Assembly: GCA_965224025.1 (NCBI GenBank)
Contig: OZ245033.1
Coordinates: 704,001 to 768,000 of the forward strand
Source: Candidatus Multivorans sp.
GTDB taxonomy: Bacteria > Acidobacteriota > Thermoanaerobaculia > Multivoradales > Multivoraceae
Reading direction: 5' to 3'
DNA length: 64,000 nt
Under the pieces are notes generated by a model, which made no database searches, had not been told where the DNA came from, and worked only from the letters and a program-made list of their open reading frames with translations. A program made the translations under genes and the position numbers. This document shows positions 5,792 to 60,810 of the stretch, in pieces; the stretch's first letter is position 1; every line of letters starts with the position of its first letter.

Positions 5792-5820
5792 CTGGGTGCG
5801 CGGATCTTCTGGTCCGCATC
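5792..5820 (+). repeat. REP-like palindrome, family A (degenerate)
   Basis: ctgggtgcgcggatcttctggtccgcatc matches 18075-18103 ctgggtgcgcgggccttctggcccgcatc. Confidence 0.75.
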
Positions 5821-12884: not shown

Positions 12885-13625
12885 ATGAGTGACACGAGCC
12901 CCGAGGCGGCTGGATCCCCGGCCGAAGAGTCGGTGACCGACGCTGTGCCCGCCACGTCAGCGGAGCATGGCCTGCTGACCTACGTGCAGGAGACGCAAAG
13001 AGACACCAGGACGTTCCGCTATTCACTGGGACTGGCTCTGTTCTTCCACGCGATTCTCCTGGTCGTCAAGCTGCCCGATCTGTACGGCAAGGAGCAGGCG
13101 GTGCCATCGGCGCCGCCGAAAGTCTTCGTGGTGCGGCAGGTGCGTTTCAAGCCGCCTCCGCCGACGGAGGAGATTCGCATCCCGAAGCCGAAGTCGAAGA
13201 AGGTGCCGATCCCTGATCCGACGCCGGATGATCTGGAACCGGTCCGGATCGAGGAACCGGAGCTCTACCTTCCCGAGGTCGACGAGCTGAATTGGAAGAT
13301 CGACGTGCCCGCGCCTCCGCCTCTGGAGACGCCCGGGCCGTTCGAAGTGACCCGTGACGTCGTCAAGCCGAAGAAGACCGTCCACGTCGACCCGCAGTAC
13401 ACCGAAATCGCGCGCAAGGCGCGGATTCAGGGTCGGGTCATTCTGCGCGCGACGATCGACCAGCAGGGTGACATCACCGATGTCGAGGTGCTGAGAGGTT
13501 TGCAGATGGGCCTCACGGAAGCCGCCGTGGCCGCGGTCAGGCAGTGGAAGTTCAAGCCGGCGACGCTGAACGGAAGGCCGGTCGCTGTCTACTTCAACCT
13601 GACCGTGACCTTCCAGCTACAGTAG
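12885..13625 (+). CDS. tonB: Energy transducer TonB (paralog of 10554-11327)
   Basis: Colinear with the first TonB; shared segments [17 protein letters not shown] and [14 protein letters not shown]. Confidence 0.9.
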   Translation: MSDTSPEAAGSPAEESVTDAVPATSAEHGLLTYVQETQRDTRTFRYSLGLALFFHAILLVVKLPDLYGKEQAVPSAPPKVFVVRQVRFKPPPPTEEIRIPKPKSKKVPIPDPTPDDLEPVRIEEPELYLPEVDELNWKIDVPAPPPLETPGPFEVTRDVVKPKKTVHVDPQYTEIARKARIQGRVILRATIDQQGDITDVEVLRGLQMGLTEAAVAAVRQWKFKPATLNGRPVAVYFNLTVTFQLQ

Positions 13626-13723
13626 GGACGAAGGCAGGGCTGTTCCAAAGTCGGCCGTTCCGAGGCCGGAGGTGCGGAAACGACTCCCGGATCAGGGGAT
13701 CGGCGCCGCGATGGCTCTCCGAG

Positions 13724-18074: not shown

Positions 18075-18234
18075 CTGGGTGCGCGGGCCTTCTGGCCCGC
18101 ATCAGGCGCGATGCCGCGAAGCGGCGAGCGCGAGCCATTTCCACCGCGCCACCGTTCACAAAGAGCAGGCCTTCGGCCGGCGCGCTTTCCTGGCCGCCTC
18201 CGGCGGCAGCGGGTCAGAAGACCCGCGCACCCAG
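18075..18234. repeat. Inverted pair of family A REPs (REPIN/BIME-like)
   Basis: ctgggtgcgcgggccttctggcccgc at 18075 and gcgggtcagaagacccgcgcacccag at 18209-18234. Confidence 0.8.
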
Positions 18235-20656: not shown

Positions 20657-21583
20657 TTAGCGGCCCGCCAGATCGCGGCGGAGGCCATTGGGGAGAGCGC
20701 GCTCGTCCGAGTCTGGCTCCTCTGCACCGTCGGGGGGCGGCCGCCGCGGGGTTGGCGGGAGTTTGCTTCGCATTTCCCGGATCTTCTCCGGCGAAGGCAC
20801 TTTCTTGATCCAGGAACTGCCGGCGTGTTCGCTCCACAGCAGCTCGCAGGCGTCACGCAGATAGTCGACCGCCTCAAGCCCCGCGTCGGTGCTGGCCCGT
20901 TTGAGTATCTGGACGTAGGTGAGGCACATGAAGGCGTTGACCTTGTCCCGTTCCGGGTACGCCGGATACTCCTCGAGCATCTCCTTGAAGCGCTCGCCGG
21001 CCGCCCTGGGAGTGCGGAAGCGGTAGTAGAAGCTGCCGACGACGAACTCGTGCTCCGCCAGTTGGTTCCGGACCTCGACGATCTTCTGGGCGGCCTGACC
21101 GGCGTACTGGCTGGTCGGGTAGAGCCGGCGGACGTTCTGGAACTCGGTCAGCGCCTGACGCGCGGTCTGCTGGTCGCGGTCCGGTTTCTCGATCCGCTCC
21201 GCGAGCGCATCGGCGAGACGGAACTGGGCATACGCCGCGCGCTCGGAGGTGGGGAACCGGTTCAGGAAGTCGCGATAACGCTGCTCCGCTTCCACGTAGG
21301 ACTGGTAGCCGCCGCGCAGGAACAGTGCATCCGCGGCCAGCAGCAGACCCTCCCGGCCGGTCTCCGAGTTCGGTTCGACTTCGAAGGCGTGAACGAGGTG
21401 CTGGAGCGCCCGGGTGAACTTCTCGTCCTCCAGGAGCTGTTTTCCGATCTCGAGCGCCTCGGAGGACGACAGCCGGAGGATCGGATCGTCCTTGACGCCT
21501 CCACAGGCGACCACCAGAGTGAGCGTCGCCACAGCCAGCACCGTTCTTCCGGCCAGCAGCGTTCTTTCGGCAAGGGGCTTCAT
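20657..21583 (-). CDS. bamD: Outer membrane assembly lipoprotein BamD
   Basis: Lipobox VVAC, FLNRFPTS, PDRDQ, LAEHEFVVG.FYY. Confidence 0.9.
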   Translation of the reverse strand: MKPLAERTLLAGRTVLAVATLTLVVACGGVKDDPILRLSSSEALEIGKQLLEDEKFTRALQHLVHAFEVEPNSETGREGLLLAADALFLRGGYQSYVEAEQRYRDFLNRFPTSERAAYAQFRLADALAERIEKPDRDQQTARQALTEFQNVRRLYPTSQYAGQAAQKIVEVRNQLAEHEFVVGSFYYRFRTPRAAGERFKEMLEEYPAYPERDKVNAFMCLTYVQILKRASTDAGLEAVDYLRDACELLWSEHAGSSWIKKVPSPEKIREMRSKLPPTPRRPPPDGAEEPDSDERALPNGLRRDLAGR

Positions 21584-38338: not shown

Positions 38339-39424
38339 ATGACGACCACCGAAACGACACCGTCCAGACCCCTCCGAATCCTCCTGGTTCGCCTTTCGGC
38401 AATCGGCGACTGCCTGCACGCGGCGCCGGTGGCGGCGGCGCTTCGCCGCGCGCATCCGGGGGCGTTCATCGGCTGGGCGATCCAGGAGCCTGCCGCGACC
38501 CTCTTGCGGGGCTGCCCCGGCGTCGACTGCTTTCATGTCTACCCTCGCCGGGGCCGCGGCATTGCGGCGCGGCTTGAGGCGTTCCGCCGCTTTCGCCGCG
38601 AACTCAGAAGCTGCCGCTACGACGCTGCAATCGATGTCCAGGGTCTCACGAAGAGTGGGCTGGTGGCTTGGTGGAGCGGCGCCCGGCAGCGAGTGGGCTT
38701 TCGCGGTGGACCGGCGATGGGCAGCCGGGAGCTGAATGCCCTGTTTCTGAACCGACGCTTCGCCGTTGACCCTGCCGTGACCCACGTCGTCGACCGCAAC
38801 CTGGCGCTGGTCCGCGCCTCGGGATTGGCCGGCAAGAAAGCCCCGATCGCGGAGTGGCGGCTGCCCGACTACGCAAAGCCCGAGGCCCTCGTCTTTCTCG
38901 AGCGCCACGGCCTGGGCGCCGGTGGCTATGCGGTGGTATCGCCCGGGACGATCTGGCGCACGAAGCACTGGCCGCCGGGCCATTTTGCGGCCGCGGTGCG
39001 GCGCTTGGCGCGGGAGCGCGGCTTGCCGGTGGTCGTCGTCTGGGCGGGCGAGGAGGAACGTCGGGTGGCGGAGCAGATCGTGGCCGGCGCCGGGGATGGC
39101 TGGCCGATCCTGCTCGCACGGCCGACCGATCTGCGCGAGCTGGCGACCCTGTTGCGGCACGCGGCCCTGTTCCTGGGTTGCGATTCCGGCCCAGCCCATC
39201 TGGCCGCTGCACTCGACGTGCCGTGCGTATCCGTGTTCGGGCCGACGGATCCTGCCCGCAACGGCCCCTACGGGCCGCGGTCCATCGCCGTGCAGATCGA
39301 CCAGCGGCTGGAATGCCAACCATGCTGGCGGCGCACCTGCAGCCGCGGCGACTTCGCGTGTATGGAGCGGTTGGATGCCGACCAGGTCGTGGAGGCTTGC
39401 CTGAGAAAGCTCGACACGGCCTAG
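38339..39424 (+). CDS. GT9 ADP-heptose:LPS heptosyltransferase (WaaC/WaaF-like)
   Basis: ILLVRLSAIGD, DVQGLTKS, K.WP, G.DSGPAHLAAAL, FGPTDP. Confidence 0.9.
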   Translation: MTTTETTPSRPLRILLVRLSAIGDCLHAAPVAAALRRAHPGAFIGWAIQEPAATLLRGCPGVDCFHVYPRRGRGIAARLEAFRRFRRELRSCRYDAAIDVQGLTKSGLVAWWSGARQRVGFRGGPAMGSRELNALFLNRRFAVDPAVTHVVDRNLALVRASGLAGKKAPIAEWRLPDYAKPEALVFLERHGLGAGGYAVVSPGTIWRTKHWPPGHFAAAVRRLARERGLPVVVVWAGEEERRVAEQIVAGAGDGWPILLARPTDLRELATLLRHAALFLGCDSGPAHLAAALDVPCVSVFGPTDPARNGPYGPRSIAVQIDQRLECQPCWRRTCSRGDFACMERLDADQVVEACLRKLDTA

Positions 39425-39690
39425 CTCGCGCGCGCCGCTTCGCGGCCGCGCGTCTGATGCCGGCCGGAGGCCGGCGTACCTGTACCTTTCTCGGGTGGAT
39501 TCTGGTGGGTCGTTGAGAGAGGTGGAATCGACCAGTAGCCGTCGCGGCTGCGGTAGCTGTGGGAAACCGGCTTGCCGGTTTTCCAAGGTCCGGCGGGAAA
39601 CGGTCTGCCGTTTTCCGCGGGACCGGCAGCTTCCGCAGCCGAGACCGCCGGTCGGTTGCGTCTCCGGCCTGCCGGAGTCACTGAAGGAAA

Positions 39691-39845
39691 GTCGGCAAGC
39701 AGCCAGGAGCGACCACCGGCGTACTGTGCTTCGAGCACCTGGCTGGGACCCGTGCCCTGGCTGCTTCGCCGCGTTGGACGCCCAGTGGAGAGTCAGTGCC
39801 TTAGAGCACCAGTACAGGTACGGGCAGGCAACGCGGCATGCCGAC
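39691..39845 (+). ncRNA. Bridge RNA of the IS110 element (target- and donor-binding loops)
   Basis: Outer stem gtcggca/tgccgac; stems aagcagccagg/cctggctgctt and gccgcgttg/caacgcggc enclose guides matching the target and the donor junction; 5' end uncertain. Confidence 0.88.
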
Positions 39846-39880
39846 CAGGCAACACTACCGCAAGGGAGAAGGAGGACGAG

Positions 39881-41134
39881 ATGACCAGGACGTGGTTCGT
39901 CGGCGTGGACTGGGGGTCCGAGACCCACCACGTGTGTGTGCTGGATCGGGACGGCAAGGTGAGGGGGGAGCGGGCGTTCGACCACAGCGGCAAGGGACTT
40001 GCCGCCATGGCCGACTGGCTCCTTGGACATACCCGACCGACGTCTCCGGACGAGATCGGCGTCGCCATCGAGGTGCCGCACGGACCGGTGGTCGAGACTC
40101 TCCTGGAGCGGGGCTTCGCCGTGCATTCGATCAACCCCAAGCAGCTCGACCGCTTCAGGGACCGCTTCTCCGTCGCCGGCGCCAAGGATGACCGCCGCGA
40201 TGCACGGGCGCTCGCCGCCGCGCTTCGCACCGACCCCGAGTGCCTGAACCGCGTGCAACCATCCGATGCAGCCATCGTGATGCTGCGCGAGGTGTCCCGC
40301 GGCCGCAAGCAGTTGGTCGGCCAGAAGAACCGCCTGGAGAACCAAGTCCGCGACCAGATCTGGCGCTACTACCCGCAGTTTCTCGCCGTGGTCAAGAACG
40401 AGGTGTCGGCGCCCTTCGCGCTGGCCTTGTGGCGACTGGCGCCGACCCCCGGCAAGGCTCGACGGCTGCGCGAAGCCACGCTCGCCAAACTGCTCAAGGA
40501 ACACCGCATCCGGCGCCTGACCTCCGCCCAACTGCGCGATCAACTGCGGGCCGAGCCGATCGCCGTTTCCCCGGACACCGTTAAGGCCGCCGTCGAACAC
40601 ATAGGACTCCTCCGGCCGGTGCTCGACACCGTCTGCCGCCAACTCGCCGACGCCGACAAGCGGCTGGAGCGGATGACCCGCGCACTCGAGGCCCCGGCCC
40701 AACGGGAAAACGACGACGACTCCCCTAAGCCGAGCGACGCCGCCATCCTCAGGTCGCTGCCCGGACTCGGCAAGGTCGGCCTCGCCACCCTGCTCTCCGA
40801 GGCCGATCAAAGCCTGGGCCGCAGAGACCACGAGGCACTGCGTTGCCTCTGCGGAGTGGCGCCGGTGACCGTCAAGTCCGGCAAGAAGCTCATCGTCATG
40901 CGACGACTCGCCGCCAACGAACACCTCAGCGACGCCGTCTATCACTGGGGACGAGTCGCCATCCAGCACGACCCGATCAGCCGCGCCAAGTACGACGCCA
41001 TGAAAGCCCAGGGAAAGACGCACGGACGCGCCATCAGACAACTCGTCGACCGACTCCTCGGCGTCGCCTGCGCCATGCTCCGAGACCGAACTCTCTTCGA
41101 CCCCAACAAGCGATGCCATGCCCAGGTCGCATGA
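39881..41134 (+). CDS. IS110-family recombinase/transposase (417 aa)
   Basis: RuvC-like DEDD (VGVDWG, AIEVP, KDDRRDA); Tnp20-type region LPGLG...GVAPVTVKSG with the catalytic Ser; RBS aaggagg. Confidence 0.96.
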   Translation: MTRTWFVGVDWGSETHHVCVLDRDGKVRGERAFDHSGKGLAAMADWLLGHTRPTSPDEIGVAIEVPHGPVVETLLERGFAVHSINPKQLDRFRDRFSVAGAKDDRRDARALAAALRTDPECLNRVQPSDAAIVMLREVSRGRKQLVGQKNRLENQVRDQIWRYYPQFLAVVKNEVSAPFALALWRLAPTPGKARRLREATLAKLLKEHRIRRLTSAQLRDQLRAEPIAVSPDTVKAAVEHIGLLRPVLDTVCRQLADADKRLERMTRALEAPAQRENDDDSPKPSDAAILRSLPGLGKVGLATLLSEADQSLGRRDHEALRCLCGVAPVTVKSGKKLIVMRRLAANEHLSDAVYHWGRVAIQHDPISRAKYDAMKAQGKTHGRAIRQLVDRLLGVACAMLRDRTLFDPNKRCHAQVA

Positions 41135-41292
41135 CCTCCCTGACCCGCAGCAGCCTCCCCAAAACACACTTGCTAAAGGGTGGAGAGTCCCAGCGGTAGG
41201 GCGTCGGCGTGGCGGGAACCTCTACTACAGACATCATGGCTCGCTGCGGTGGATACGGCTCGGGCGGGCCACTGCTTGGCATACTTCGATCG

Positions 41293-41547
41293 ATGCACGA
41301 CGAACCCGCCGCCGATCCGCCGCTAATCCGCCCGCCGGCGTTCGACCGGATCACTCTCCGGCTGCTTGTGGCGGCGCTGGTCGCCGGTGCGCTGACGGTG
41401 CCGATCGTCATGTCTTGGCGTGACTTCAGTTGGCTCATGGCGCTCTCCAGTGCCGCCGGTATCGCTCTCCTGATCTTCTTCAGCGGCCGTGCCGCGCGGG
41501 TCCTGAACTTCGAGTGGCGCCGGCCGCCCTTCGAGCGGGAGGACTAG
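41293..41547 (+). CDS. Small two-TM hypothetical membrane protein
   Basis: Two hydrophobic helices; ends 3 bp before the NUDIX gene. Confidence 0.6.
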   Translation: MHDEPAADPPLIRPPAFDRITLRLLVAALVAGALTVPIVMSWRDFSWLMALSSAAGIALLIFFSGRAARVLNFEWRRPPFERED

Positions 41548-47127: not shown

Positions 47128-47197
47128 GGATGCGGGCGAGACGCCCGCGTTCCCAGGGCGGATGCGGGAGCGGATCGCGCCACCCGGGTTCCCAGGG
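47128..47197 (-). repeat. Family A REP plus partial family B start, between convergent genes
   Basis: ggatgcgggcgagacgcccgcgttcccaggg is the reverse complement of 60780-60810; cgcgccacccgggttcccagg is the reverse complement of the start of the 13724 composite. Confidence 0.85.
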
Positions 47198-57693: not shown

Positions 57694-59613
57694 ATGCCCG
57701 TGACGATGCTCCCACGGTCCGCTCTGCTGGCCTTCGCCGTCGCCGCTCTAGCCTGCGCCGGGCCGCCGGCCGACGACGCGCCCGGCCCCTCGCGCTCCGG
57801 CAGCGCTGGCGCCACGCCCGGAGACGCCGCCGACCGGGTCGCCCTGTTCGGGGACATGCACATCCACACGATGTACTCGCACGACGCCTTCATGGGCACC
57901 GTGCGCACCACGCCGGATGACGCCTACCGGTACGCCAGGGGGGAGGCGATCCCACACCCCTCAGGCGAACAGATCCGGCTCTCCGGCGCGCCGCTCGACT
58001 TCCTCGCGGTGACCGACCATGCGGAGTATCTGGGTGCCCTGGCGGCGCTGATCGATCCCTCGAGCCCGACCTATGGGCATGCGTTGACCGACGATCTGAT
58101 CACTGGCCAGAGCGGCGGGAACCGGGCGCGGCTGGGTGCGCTGAGCCGGGTGCGGGAACTGGCCCGCGCGGGCGATCCGATCAACGGCCCGGATGTGCGC
58201 GGAAGCGCCTGGCAGCGGATCATCGAGGCGGCCGAGCGCCACAACGATCCCGGGCGGTTCACCGCCCTGATCGGCTACGAGTACACGATGGGGGTAAGCA
58301 GCCGTCACCTGCACCGGAACGTCATCTTCCGCGGCAGCGAGGCGCCGGACCTGCCCTTCAGTTCCCTCGACGGCGACCCCGAGGACCTCTGGACCTGGCT
58401 CGACGGTCTGCGCGAGGAGGGGATCGAGGCGCTCGCGATGCCGCACAACATGAACCAGAGCGACGGCCTGGCCTTTCCCGACCGGGAGACGTGGAAGGGC
58501 GCGGAGATCGACGCCGCCTTCGCTGCCAAGCGGATACGGAACGAACCGGTAGCCGAGATCAGCCAGCAGAAGGGCACGTCGGAGGTCCATCCGTCGCTGT
58601 CGCCGAACGACGAGTGGGCCGACTTCCAGATCGTCCAGTACTACCTGGATCGGGTCAACAACACCGACCCGATCTCGGTCTTCAAGGGCGGCTACTGGCG
58701 GGACGCCCTCTTGACCGGGCTCGAGATGGAGGCGCGCCTGGGCGTGAACCCCTACGCTCTCGGTGCGATCGGATCGAGCGACAGCCACGTCAGCGCCGGC
58801 TCCTTCGAGGAGGACAATCGCTTCACGTCGAGGGTGAACACGCCCCAGGCGCGCGGTTCCGCCTACAGCGAAGAGGATGGCGGCTGGGAGAGCTTCTGGA
58901 CGCCGCGCCAGGCCACGCACGGCACCGGCGGCCTGGCCGCGGTATGGGCCGGCGAGAACACCCGCGCCGCGATCTTCGACGCGCTGAAGCGCCGGGAGTC
59001 GTTCGCCACCTCGGGCACCCGCATCCGGGTGCGCTTCTTCGGCGGCTTCGGGCTCGATGAGGCCCTGGCACGGACTGCGGACCCGGTCGCCGCGGCCTAC
59101 GAGCACGGCGTGCCGATGGGCGGCGACCTCGAAGGCGGCAGCGCCGACGAGTCCCCTGGGAACGCGGGCGTCTCGCCCGCATCCGGCGACGGCGCACCGA
59201 GCTTCCTGGTCTGGGCGCTGCGCGACCCGGAGAACGCCTGGCTGCAGCGGGCCCAGGTCATCAAGGGCTGGCAGGAAGACGGCGAAGCGATGGAGCAGGT
59301 CTACGACGTCGTCTGCTCTGACGGTCTCGAGCCGGACCCCGAAACCCACCGCTGTGATGACAACGGCGCCCAGGTCAACCTGGACGACTGCTCGATCAGC
59401 CGCGACAAGGGCGCCGTCGAACTCCGGACCACCTGGACCGACCCGGACTTCGACCCCGGCGCTCGCTCCTTCTACTACGTCCGCGTGCTCGAGAACCCGA
59501 CCTGCCGCTGGTCGACCTGGGACGCGCTCAGCCTCGGCATCGAGCCGAACCCCGACCTCCACGCGACCCACCAGGAACGGGCCTGGAGCTCGCCGATCTG
59601 GTACACACCATGA
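57694..59613 (+). CDS. DUF3604 (PHP-like metallohydrolase) lipoprotein
   Basis: Lipobox ALAC, FGDMHIHTMYS.DA, AVTDHAEYLG, LHRNVIFR, PHN.N.S.G, YYVRVLENPTCRW, QERAWSSPIWY. Confidence 0.88.
   Translation: MPVTMLPRSALLAFAVAALACAGPPADDAPGPSRSGSAGATPGDAADRVALFGDMHIHTMYSHDAFMGTVRTTPDDAYRYARGEAIPHPSGEQIRLSGAPLDFLAVTDHAEYLGALAALIDPSSPTYGHALTDDLITGQSGGNRARLGALSRVRELARAGDPINGPDVRGSAWQRIIEAAERHNDPGRFTALIGYEYTMGVSSRHLHRNVIFRGSEAPDLPFSSLDGDPEDLWTWLDGLREEGIEALAMPHNMNQSDGLAFPDRETWKGAEIDAAFAAKRIRNEPVAEISQQKGTSEVHPSLSPNDEWADFQIVQYYLDRVNNTDPISVFKGGYWRDALLTGLEMEARLGVNPYALGAIGSSDSHVSAGSFEEDNRFTSRVNTPQARGSAYSEEDGGWESFWTPRQATHGTGGLAAVWAGENTRAAIFDALKRRESFATSGTRIRVRFFGGFGLDEALARTADPVAAAYEHGVPMGGDLEGGSADESPGNAGVSPASGDGAPSFLVWALRDPENAWLQRAQVIKGWQEDGEAMEQVYDVVCSDGLEPDPETHRCDDNGAQVNLDDCSISRDKGAVELRTTWTDPDFDPGARSFYYVRVLENPTCRWSTWDALSLGIEPNPDLHATHQERAWSSPIWYTP
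59154..59184 (+). repeat. Family A REP inside the DUF3604 gene (in frame)
   Basis: ccctgggaacgcgggcgtctcgcccgcatcc is identical to 60780-60810; reads PGNAGVSPAS. Confidence 0.9.
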
Positions 59614-60779: not shown

Positions 60780-60810
60780 CCCTGGGAACGCGGGCGTCTC
60801 GCCCGCATCC
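60780..60810 (+). repeat. Family A REP
   Basis: Hairpin gcgggcg-tct-cgcccgc; identical copies at 59154 and 47128 (-). Confidence 0.9.

Follow-up and report, generated by a model that had tools for sequence, protein, structure and literature searches.

A predicted bridge RNA and one subtype of a REP-like repeat in the site choice of an IS110-family element of Candidatus Multivorans

How does an insertion sequence come to occupy only one of several closely similar repeat subtypes in its host genome? The question is raised by a 64,000-nt stretch of DNA from Candidatus Multivorans sp. (contig OZ245033.1, positions 704,001 to 768,000; the whole stretch is called the window hereafter). Direct reading of its sequence reveals an IS110-family element of 1,708 bp at 39481-41188, lying between two CC cores inside a repeat that resembles repetitive extragenic palindromic (REP) sequences. 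With a probability of about 0.9, we conclude that this IS110-group insertion sequence picks its insertion site by means of a bridge RNA from its own left end.

Guide segments in the left end of the element

The left end of the element (39481-39880, 400 nt) folds at -216.9 kcal/mol, with z = -7.06 relative to shuffled sequences. Folding and covariation together place a bridge RNA with two loops in this region. The two halves of the target and the segments of the predicted RNA are as follows.

39456-39480, + strand: left half of the REP-like target, read directly, with gatgc at 39456-39460, the hairpin CCGGCC-gga-GGCCGG at 39460-39474, cgta, and the core CC at 39479-39480
41189-41194, + strand: second core CC (41189-41190) and right target cagc (41191-41194)
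39691-39845, + strand: predicted bridge RNA (folds and covariation), with an outer stem GUCGGCA/UGCCGAC round two stem-loops, each having a large internal loop and a small apical hairpin
39716-39725, + strand: left target guide CCGGCGUAC(U), which reads like the top strand of left target and core and would thus base-pair with the bottom one
39742-39747, + strand: right target guide GCUGGG, after the apical hairpin of loop 1, complementary to top-strand CC+CAGC
directly after the right target guide, to 39749, + strand: handshake guide AC, complementary to the last GT of the right end
39785-39794, + strand: left donor guide GUGGAGAGUC, with the same sequence as the element's final bases followed by the first core C
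39812-39818, + strand: right donor guide GUACAGG, complementary to CC+TGTAC at the left end and invariant among copies
directly after the right donor guide, to 39821, + strand: handshake guide UAC, complementary to the GTA that the left target has in its T form

The target loop reads CCGGCG(U/C)AC ... GCUGGG, with CCGGCGTAC at 39716-39724 of the element's RNA region, and the donor loop reads the element's own ends.

Occupied and empty target sites

The genome of the window (G000) comprises 5.14 Mb in three contigs, with 67.6% GC, and has a listed completeness of 100%. In a BLAST search with the element, it yielded 12 full-length copies at 97-100% identity, two copies with a 75-95-nt deletion in the leader, one copy split in two pieces, and a few fragments. 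All tblastn matches of the recombinase in the genome were copies of this lineage, and no second IS110 lineage was found. Left junctions were located by a pattern search for the left end that was blind to the flank. All 17 were preceded by CCGGCG[C/T]A-CC, 12 in the C form and five in the T form. The 15 right junctions read CC-cagt (9), CC-cagc (4) or CC-cgg (2), thus CC+C[A/G]G in 15/15, and the core CC stood on both sides at all junctions. The sequence farther out varies between sites, which marks the copies as independent insertions instead of duplicated segments. As programmed, the target reads CCGGCG[C/T]A-CC-C[A/G]G[C/T], mainly in its C form.

Sites throughout the genome were scored by mismatches to the 9-nt guide CCGGCGYAC, followed by C-CAG. 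Empty perfect sites numbered 44 (40 C form, 4 T form), plus 13 that end in CCGG. This yields the genome-wide occupancy table that the original prediction had proposed as a check: 17/61 perfect sites were occupied, versus 0/140 sites with one mismatch (Fisher p = 2.7e-10). Subtype CCCGCGCAC, with 55 copies, departs from the target at a single base, the sixth upstream of the core; two positions differ in CCCGCGTTC, with 124 copies, and likewise two in TCCGCGCAC, with 40. All three are unoccupied.

That the element is confined to one REP-like subtype, as had been proposed from the window, was therefore borne out at 17/17 junctions, with none in CCCGCGCAC, TCCGCGCAC or CCCGCGTTC. The further proposal that the RNA sets this specificity agrees with the position of the distinguishing bases, which lie within the stretch read by the left target guide. 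A single subtype is indeed used, but the T form, from which the target had been deduced, proved to be its minority (5 occupied, 4 empty) compared with the C form (12 occupied, 40 empty). The apparent preference for the T form (5/9 versus 12/52 occupied) was not significant (p = 0.10, or 0.11 when the CCGG empties are counted).

Some empty targets lie close to copies of the element. Within 65 nt of the copy at 296891-298598 of contig 1 there are two empty perfect targets, a C form at 298626 and a T form at 298661. Three copies (2007136, 2020657 and 2025446) lie within 20 kb at 2007136-2027153 of contig 1, together with empty targets at 2025263 and 2025390. In the window itself, 20953-20965 (- strand) holds an empty T-form perfect match to the left guide followed by CCGG (CCGGCGTACCCGG); this site has no REP hairpin and is among the 13 of the CCGG type.

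The repeat family that supplies these sites is abundant. In the window, GCGYWCCCAG has seven matches versus 1.54 expected, and 0/100 shuffles reach seven. The flanks of the element and the frame of its restored empty site had been described as shared with other repeat copies; the bases read as claimed, and the cited copies exist. An unoccupied repeat of the commonest subtype, gatgc-GGGCG-aga-CGCCC-GCGTTCCCAG, lies at 47129-47156 (+ strand; tail 47147-47156) and has two mismatches to the left target guide. The same form, gatgc-GGGCG-aga-CGCCC-GCGTTCCCAG, is unoccupied at 59156-59165 (- strand) and 60782-60791 (- strand). The repeat at 18075-18087 (- strand), GGGCC-agaa-GGCCC-GCGCACCCAG, belongs to subtype CCCGCGCACCCAG, has one guide mismatch, at the sixth base upstream of the core, and is likewise unoccupied. 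Copies in the window beyond those listed earlier comprise a second one of subtype CCCGCGCACCCAG at 18222-18234 (+ strand) and others at 5792 (- strand) and 58132 (- strand).

Counted over both strands of the three contigs, CCGGCGTACCCAG occurs 4 times, CCGGCGCACCCAG 40 times, CCCGCGTTCCCAG 124 times and CCCGCGCACCCAG 55 times. Genome-wide, a perfect stem of at least 4 bp stands directly upstream at 402 of 1864 CGNNCCCAG sites, and four repeat subtypes read CCGGCGCA, CCGGCGTA, CCCGCGCA and CCCGCGTT. The main 14-mers, counted with their stems, are the following.

GCCCGCGTTCCCAG: 122 copies, 120 with a stem
GCCCGCGCACCCAG: 43 copies, 38 with a stem
GCCGGCGCACCCAG: 36 copies, 27 with a stem
GTCCGCGCACCCAG: 36 copies, 34 with a stem
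ACCCGCGCACCCAG: 12 copies, 11 with a stem

The profile of the Y1 transposase/REP-associated tyrosine transposase (RAYT; PF01797) gave no match at E <= 0.001 in G000; as a control, it matched in 6 of 14 known genomes. Since no RAYT was found in the genome, we call the repeats REP-like. Several hundred hairpins with the tail GCG[C/T][A/T]CCCAG thus coexist in G000 with no detectable RAYT. Several unrelated 14-mers that end in CCCAG and are free of hairpins, such as GGGTTCGCGCCCAG and GGCAGCGCGCCCAG, are present in 15-16 copies each; on account of these, we suspect that the genome holds other multi-copy elements besides the IS110 element.

Relatives, guide variation and rival explanations

Relatives were collected by a scan of species-representative genomes, in which the best 80 of 178 loci were kept. 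Among these 80, the closest (71-93% protein identity) were in metagenome-assembled genomes labelled Candidatus Multivorans, followed by Thermoanaerobaculia (65%) and then by Vicinamibacterales and others (56-59%). The loops and the left junction could be located in 78 of the 80 loci plus the window (L076 has no donor loop and L046 no left junction), giving 27 distinct target loops. For covariation, 21 of the 27 variant sequences were aligned, six near-duplicates being left out, and two pairs inside the right guide were removed. The consensus of the 21 sequences has the same two stem-loops; across its 31 scaffold pairs, 98.2% of cells were paired and 11 pairs had changed on both sides. The observed values were reached by 0/500 shuffles, and in slid controls pairing dropped to 27-42%.

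The guide segments behaved differently from this scaffold. For the 27 loops, the left guide matched the consensus of its own flank at a mean of 8.52 of 10 positions, versus 5.62 for non-cognate flanks, and the right guide matched at 6.26 of 8 positions, versus 4.35. Three low right-flank scores (L059, L063 and L075) were artefacts: two came from right ends of tandem copies, and in one the parser had taken the first of two matches. Targets that are unrelated to one another (GGGGTC-CC-TTTTCA, GCGATC-CC-ATTTGG, GTGGACG-CC-TCCCC and GTGATAG-CC-TTGTC) are spelled at the same loop positions. The left donor guide is conserved and co-varies with the right end in the relatives (GTGGAGAGT, GTGGGAAGT and GTGGGGAGT). 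The guide segments are the variable parts, tracking the flanks of each element, while the scaffold is conserved.

At L059 and L063, two copies adjoin, the right end of one meeting the left end of the next directly across a CC (GGGGAGT-cc-tgtac). Either the copies stand in head-to-tail tandem, or a circle-like junction has become fixed in the chromosome.

Sister elements with guides for another subtype, which the original prediction had suggested looking for, were absent from the genome of the window and present in another genome, G001. Its main lineage (12-13 copies) has the guide ACGGCGCAC and the right guide ACUGGG, and the site was gccggcgcaCC...CCcagt in 11/11 copies examined. The sister lineage is a single copy, at a place listed both as L021 and as L082; it has the guide ACCGCGCAC and the right guide GCUGGG, and occupies the site gacccgcgcaCC in the context GGGTC-agaa-GACCC-gcgcaCC...CCcagc. 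In these two lineages, guide and target differ at the same positions, one guide base separating two REP subtypes, with the sister being one observation only.

Against a bridge RNA as the agent of site choice, it could be argued that the recombinase itself recognises the REP hairpin, by its DNA structure or its sequence, and that the match between leader and target is incidental. A perfect hairpin whose 3' arm overlaps the target is present at 13/17 occupied sites (and at 30/44 empty perfect sites), and for ISPpu10 a gain in efficiency from a stem-loop at the target is reported in a preprint (10.64898/2026.03.19.712850). However, the remaining 4/17 occupied sites have no perfect hairpin and keep the 11-13-nt sequence, indicating that the sequence is read and not REP membership as such. 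REP targeting in the sense originally proposed thus describes 13 of the occupied sites and fails for four without a canonical hairpin: what occupied sites have in common is the sequence, and the repeat merely supplies most copies of it. Moreover, in relatives whose protein and RNA scaffold are very similar, the insertion sites are unrelated, non-palindromic sequences, which the loops of these relatives spell out, and in ISPpu10, as that preprint describes it, base pairing is needed and the stem-loop merely enhances. We therefore regard hairpin reading by the protein as improbable, at around one chance in twenty.

Selection offers another account, in which insertion is less specific, copies in genes or in other repeats have been purged, and those in a harmless subtype survive. 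Only surviving copies are visible, and by a crude coding call (a long open frame plus high third-position GC) the empty targets lie mostly outside coding sequence, with 8/44 called coding versus 1325/2000 random positions (66%). The same comparison, with the crudeness of its coding call, is what makes safe-harbour targeting of the repeat, as originally suggested, plausible. Yet the other REP subtypes look equally intergenic and are far more numerous (124, 55 and 40 copies), and none is occupied; the coding call for the commonest of them, again a crude measure, was 58/124. Purging also has to contend with the same 11 nt and the same core at every junction, and we consider it slightly less probable still than hairpin reading. 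Finally, the genome is full of such repeats, and the leader shares a module with IS21-family elements and so has taken up foreign sequence before, but the notion that CCGGCGTAC is a REP piece captured from an old flank and not a working guide is barely credible, because the segment occupies the same internal-loop position, between conserved stems, at which every relative has its own target sequence, and is matched by the right guide across the apical hairpin.

The bridge RNA reading also has evidence to its disadvantage, beginning with variation inside the genome. Guide base 39722 is U in five and C in nine of 14 copies. The U-guide copies sit in T, T, C, C and C sites, all of which fit U-A or U-G pairs. 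The C-guide copies sit in seven C sites and two T sites, the latter giving a C-A mismatch two bases from the core. Agreement between guide base and flank base within the genome was not significant (p = 0.58), and we rejected it as evidence. The two C-guide copies in T sites could reflect the action in trans of another copy's RNA, or later mutation; trans action is reported for IS621 (PMC11208160) and named for ISPpu10 (10.64898/2026.03.19.712850). Among relatives, L026-L030 carry the guide UCCGCGCAC and sit in tccgcgcac twice and in gccggcgcac three times; three of the five copies are thus in sites with two distal mismatches to the left guide. Distal guide positions are therefore not always strict, and the absolute discrimination at the sixth base in the genome of the window could owe something to another factor as well, for instance the stem-loop itself or a small number of founding events. 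No Rfam 15 model recognised the predicted RNA: the region 39300-41400 gave only a chance microRNA match (20.1 bits versus a gathering score of 110), and the structure accordingly rests on our own alignment. In addition, RNA production and circularisation are here inferred from the DNA.

Natural target variation is mostly compatible with wobble pairing: at -2 a U faces T or C, in the right target a U faces A or G, and a G faces C or T. The U allele of the guide could wobble onto both the T and the C target forms, and the C allele would fit only the C form. The handshake guide would remain adapted to the T form, the rarer of the two and the one with the larger occupied share (5/9 versus 12/52). 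Tentatively, and with the odds rather against it, single-base changes in the left target guide may allow sister IS110 lineages to share out the subtypes of a single REP-like family, which would amount to ongoing retargeting of the bridge RNA and niche partitioning inside a genome; the guides ACGGCGCAC in CCGG-stem repeats and ACCGCGCAC in GACCC-stem repeats of G001 speak for such a division.

Beside the right target guide, window position 39741 is changed from G to T in contigs of all four public runs, giving UGCUGGG. The same UGCUGGG is found in the relatives L001-L004, whose right flanks read CCCAGCA. In other populations, the right guide may have been naturally extended or retuned by the T at 39741.

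Recombinase, leader and known systems

The other features of the element are the following.

39881-41134, + strand: recombinase gene (417 amino acids), the single long gene of the insert, assigned by Pfam and by alignment with IS621
39483-39488, + strand: -10-like TACCTT at the left end, read directly
41170-41175, + strand: -35-like TTGCTA, 13 nt from the right end, a putative half of the junction promoter
39523-39660, + strand: leader module that precedes the bridge RNA and forms a long hairpin of great stability, partly deleted in two copies

The recombinase matches the Pfam families DEDD_Tnp_IS110 (PF01548; E = 1.5e-32, profile positions 1-155 of 155), a RuvC-like DEDD domain at the N-terminus, and Transposase_20 (PF02371; E = 1.1e-12), the C-terminal domain that holds the conserved serine. 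Among solved structures it aligns with IS621 (8wt6; E = 2e-11), distantly and in two stretches. D10, E64, D104 and D107 align with the acidic (DEDD) residues of IS621, and S333, within KSG, aligns with the serine in its ESG. Only about 57 nt separate the stop codon from the right end. No terminal inverted repeats beyond chance were found: the ends match at 9/14 positions, a value equalled by 355/500 shuffles. As far as a sequence can tell, the element has every feature of the IS110 family. Upstream, a family-9 glycosyltransferase gene ends at 39424, so that the insert lies just beyond the end of a gene.

How the bridge RNA would act can be laid out by analogy with IS621. The element would excise as a circle, and the joining ...GGAGAGT-CC-TGTACC... 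would set TTGCTA 17 nt from TACCTT, a distance that the two motifs have only in the joined, circular form. A promoter is thus predicted across the joined right end and left end (RE-LE); the left-end TAnnnT and the right-end CTTGnnA are kept in place in 22/22 variant groups with ends found. Transcription would run through the long leader hairpin and then through the bridge RNA of about 155 nt. Within the target loop, the segment CCGGCG(U/C)AC would bind the bottom strand at CCGGCG(T/C)A+C, and the segment GCUGGG would bind the top strand at CC+CAG(C/T). Strand exchange by the DEDD/Ser recombinase would follow at the CC core. Since the left target guide and the 3' arm of the hairpin overlap, only REP-like repeats with a CCGG... 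stem would be read; the commoner GCCC-G or GTCC-G subtypes, which differ at the sixth base upstream of the core, would be skipped. A search of the contigs of four public runs for an RE-LE joint, a circle junction or an empty-site contig at 39250-41450 found none; these contigs are short pieces and uninformative either way. The public runs listed included none of RNA.

The split copy of the element consists of element positions 1-551 and 548-1708, at 13083-13635 and 5044245-5045405 of contig 1, both on the minus strand. It was either interrupted by about 15 kb across contig ends or produced by rearrangement between copies.

Most of the leader hairpin is deleted in two copies in G000, and relatives at 56-59% identity have no such module, their left end reaching the gene after about 235 nt versus about 400 nt here. 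The module (39533-39656) is about 85% identical to segments beside the ends of another repeated element, at 3672584-3672706, 4048787-4048918, 2474161-2474283 and 1301954-1302035 of G000 contig 1 and at about 562-684 of L081. The element at L081 encodes IstB-like (1.3e-23) and integrase-core (2e-07) proteins, which makes it an IS21-family element. Since IS21-family and IS110 elements share the segment, one structured module is common to two unrelated insertion sequences.

The RNA basis of IS110 targeting was demonstrated in 2024 (PMC11208160, PMC11208158), and the presence of IS110-family elements in REPs has long been known, both in general (Tobes and Pareja 2006, PMC1525189) and for IS621 (PMC11208160). 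For IS621, the bridge-RNA mechanism, the strand rules, the inclusion of the core within the pairings and a junction promoter across RE-LE are described in PMC11208160, and handshake guides in PMC11208158. A full-text search for literature joining IS110, Acidobacteri* and bridge RNA found none, although the supplements of the bridge-RNA papers may already list the family or CC-core relatives; a search for Multivorans with Thermoanaerobaculia found only unrelated papers.

The present case adds a well-resolved natural example of a bridge RNA from a little-studied high-GC lineage. It offers 61 target sites of known sequence with 17 occupied, a boundary of one base that separates used from unused repeat subtypes, a natural U/C guide polymorphism and 27 CC-core guide-target pairs, a data set usable for mismatch and wobble rules, core preference and the role of the target stem-loop in bridge recombinases. 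The known picture, in which IS110 elements use REPs as insertion sites via their RNA, is unchanged.

IS621 of Escherichia coli is alike in its DEDD and Ser recombinase, in its left-end RNA with the target loop first and the donor loop second, in left guides of top-strand sense and complementary right guides with the core included, in handshake bases after each right guide, in -35 and -10 halves split between right and left ends, and in a REP as natural target, as reported in PMC11208160 and PMC11208158. It differs in its core, which is CT there and CC here, and in its recombinase, with 328 residues in the solved chain versus 417 amino acids. Its RNA has 177 nt from the promoter, whereas here the left end has about 400 nt, with an extra hairpin of about 140 nt between the promoter half and the bridge RNA; the host here is a high-GC lineage.

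ISPpu10 and ISPpu9 of Pseudomonas putida are also alike, all copies lying in one conserved REP sequence and recombinase and RNA acting in trans (10.64898/2026.03.19.712850; PMC12288879). A GC-rich 5' extension of their target folds into a stem-loop over the left target, and wobble is tolerated; the 2026 preprint gives one REP sequence as the sole target of ISPpu10, with the stem-loop overlapping the left target and wobble tolerated (10.64898/2026.03.19.712850). They differ, as described there, in having another target and a CT core, whereas here several REP subtypes coexist and one is used. Another difference is that, here, copies within one genome vary at the guide base that lies two positions from the core.

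Elements of the IS1111 group have subterminal inverted repeats and carry their RNA downstream of the gene. By contrast, the RNA described here lies upstream of the gene, and the ends have no inverted repeat beyond chance. The same recombinase family and an RNA-guided site choice are common to both, the RNA of the IS1111 group being the seekRNA (PMC11187229).

Taken together, bridge RNAs that target REPs have been published before, for IS621 and ISPpu10, and the element described here is a case of this known mechanism in a new bacterial lineage. Distinctive here are the CC core, the long leader with its extra hairpin, the host lineage, and the several coexisting repeat subtypes of which one is used.

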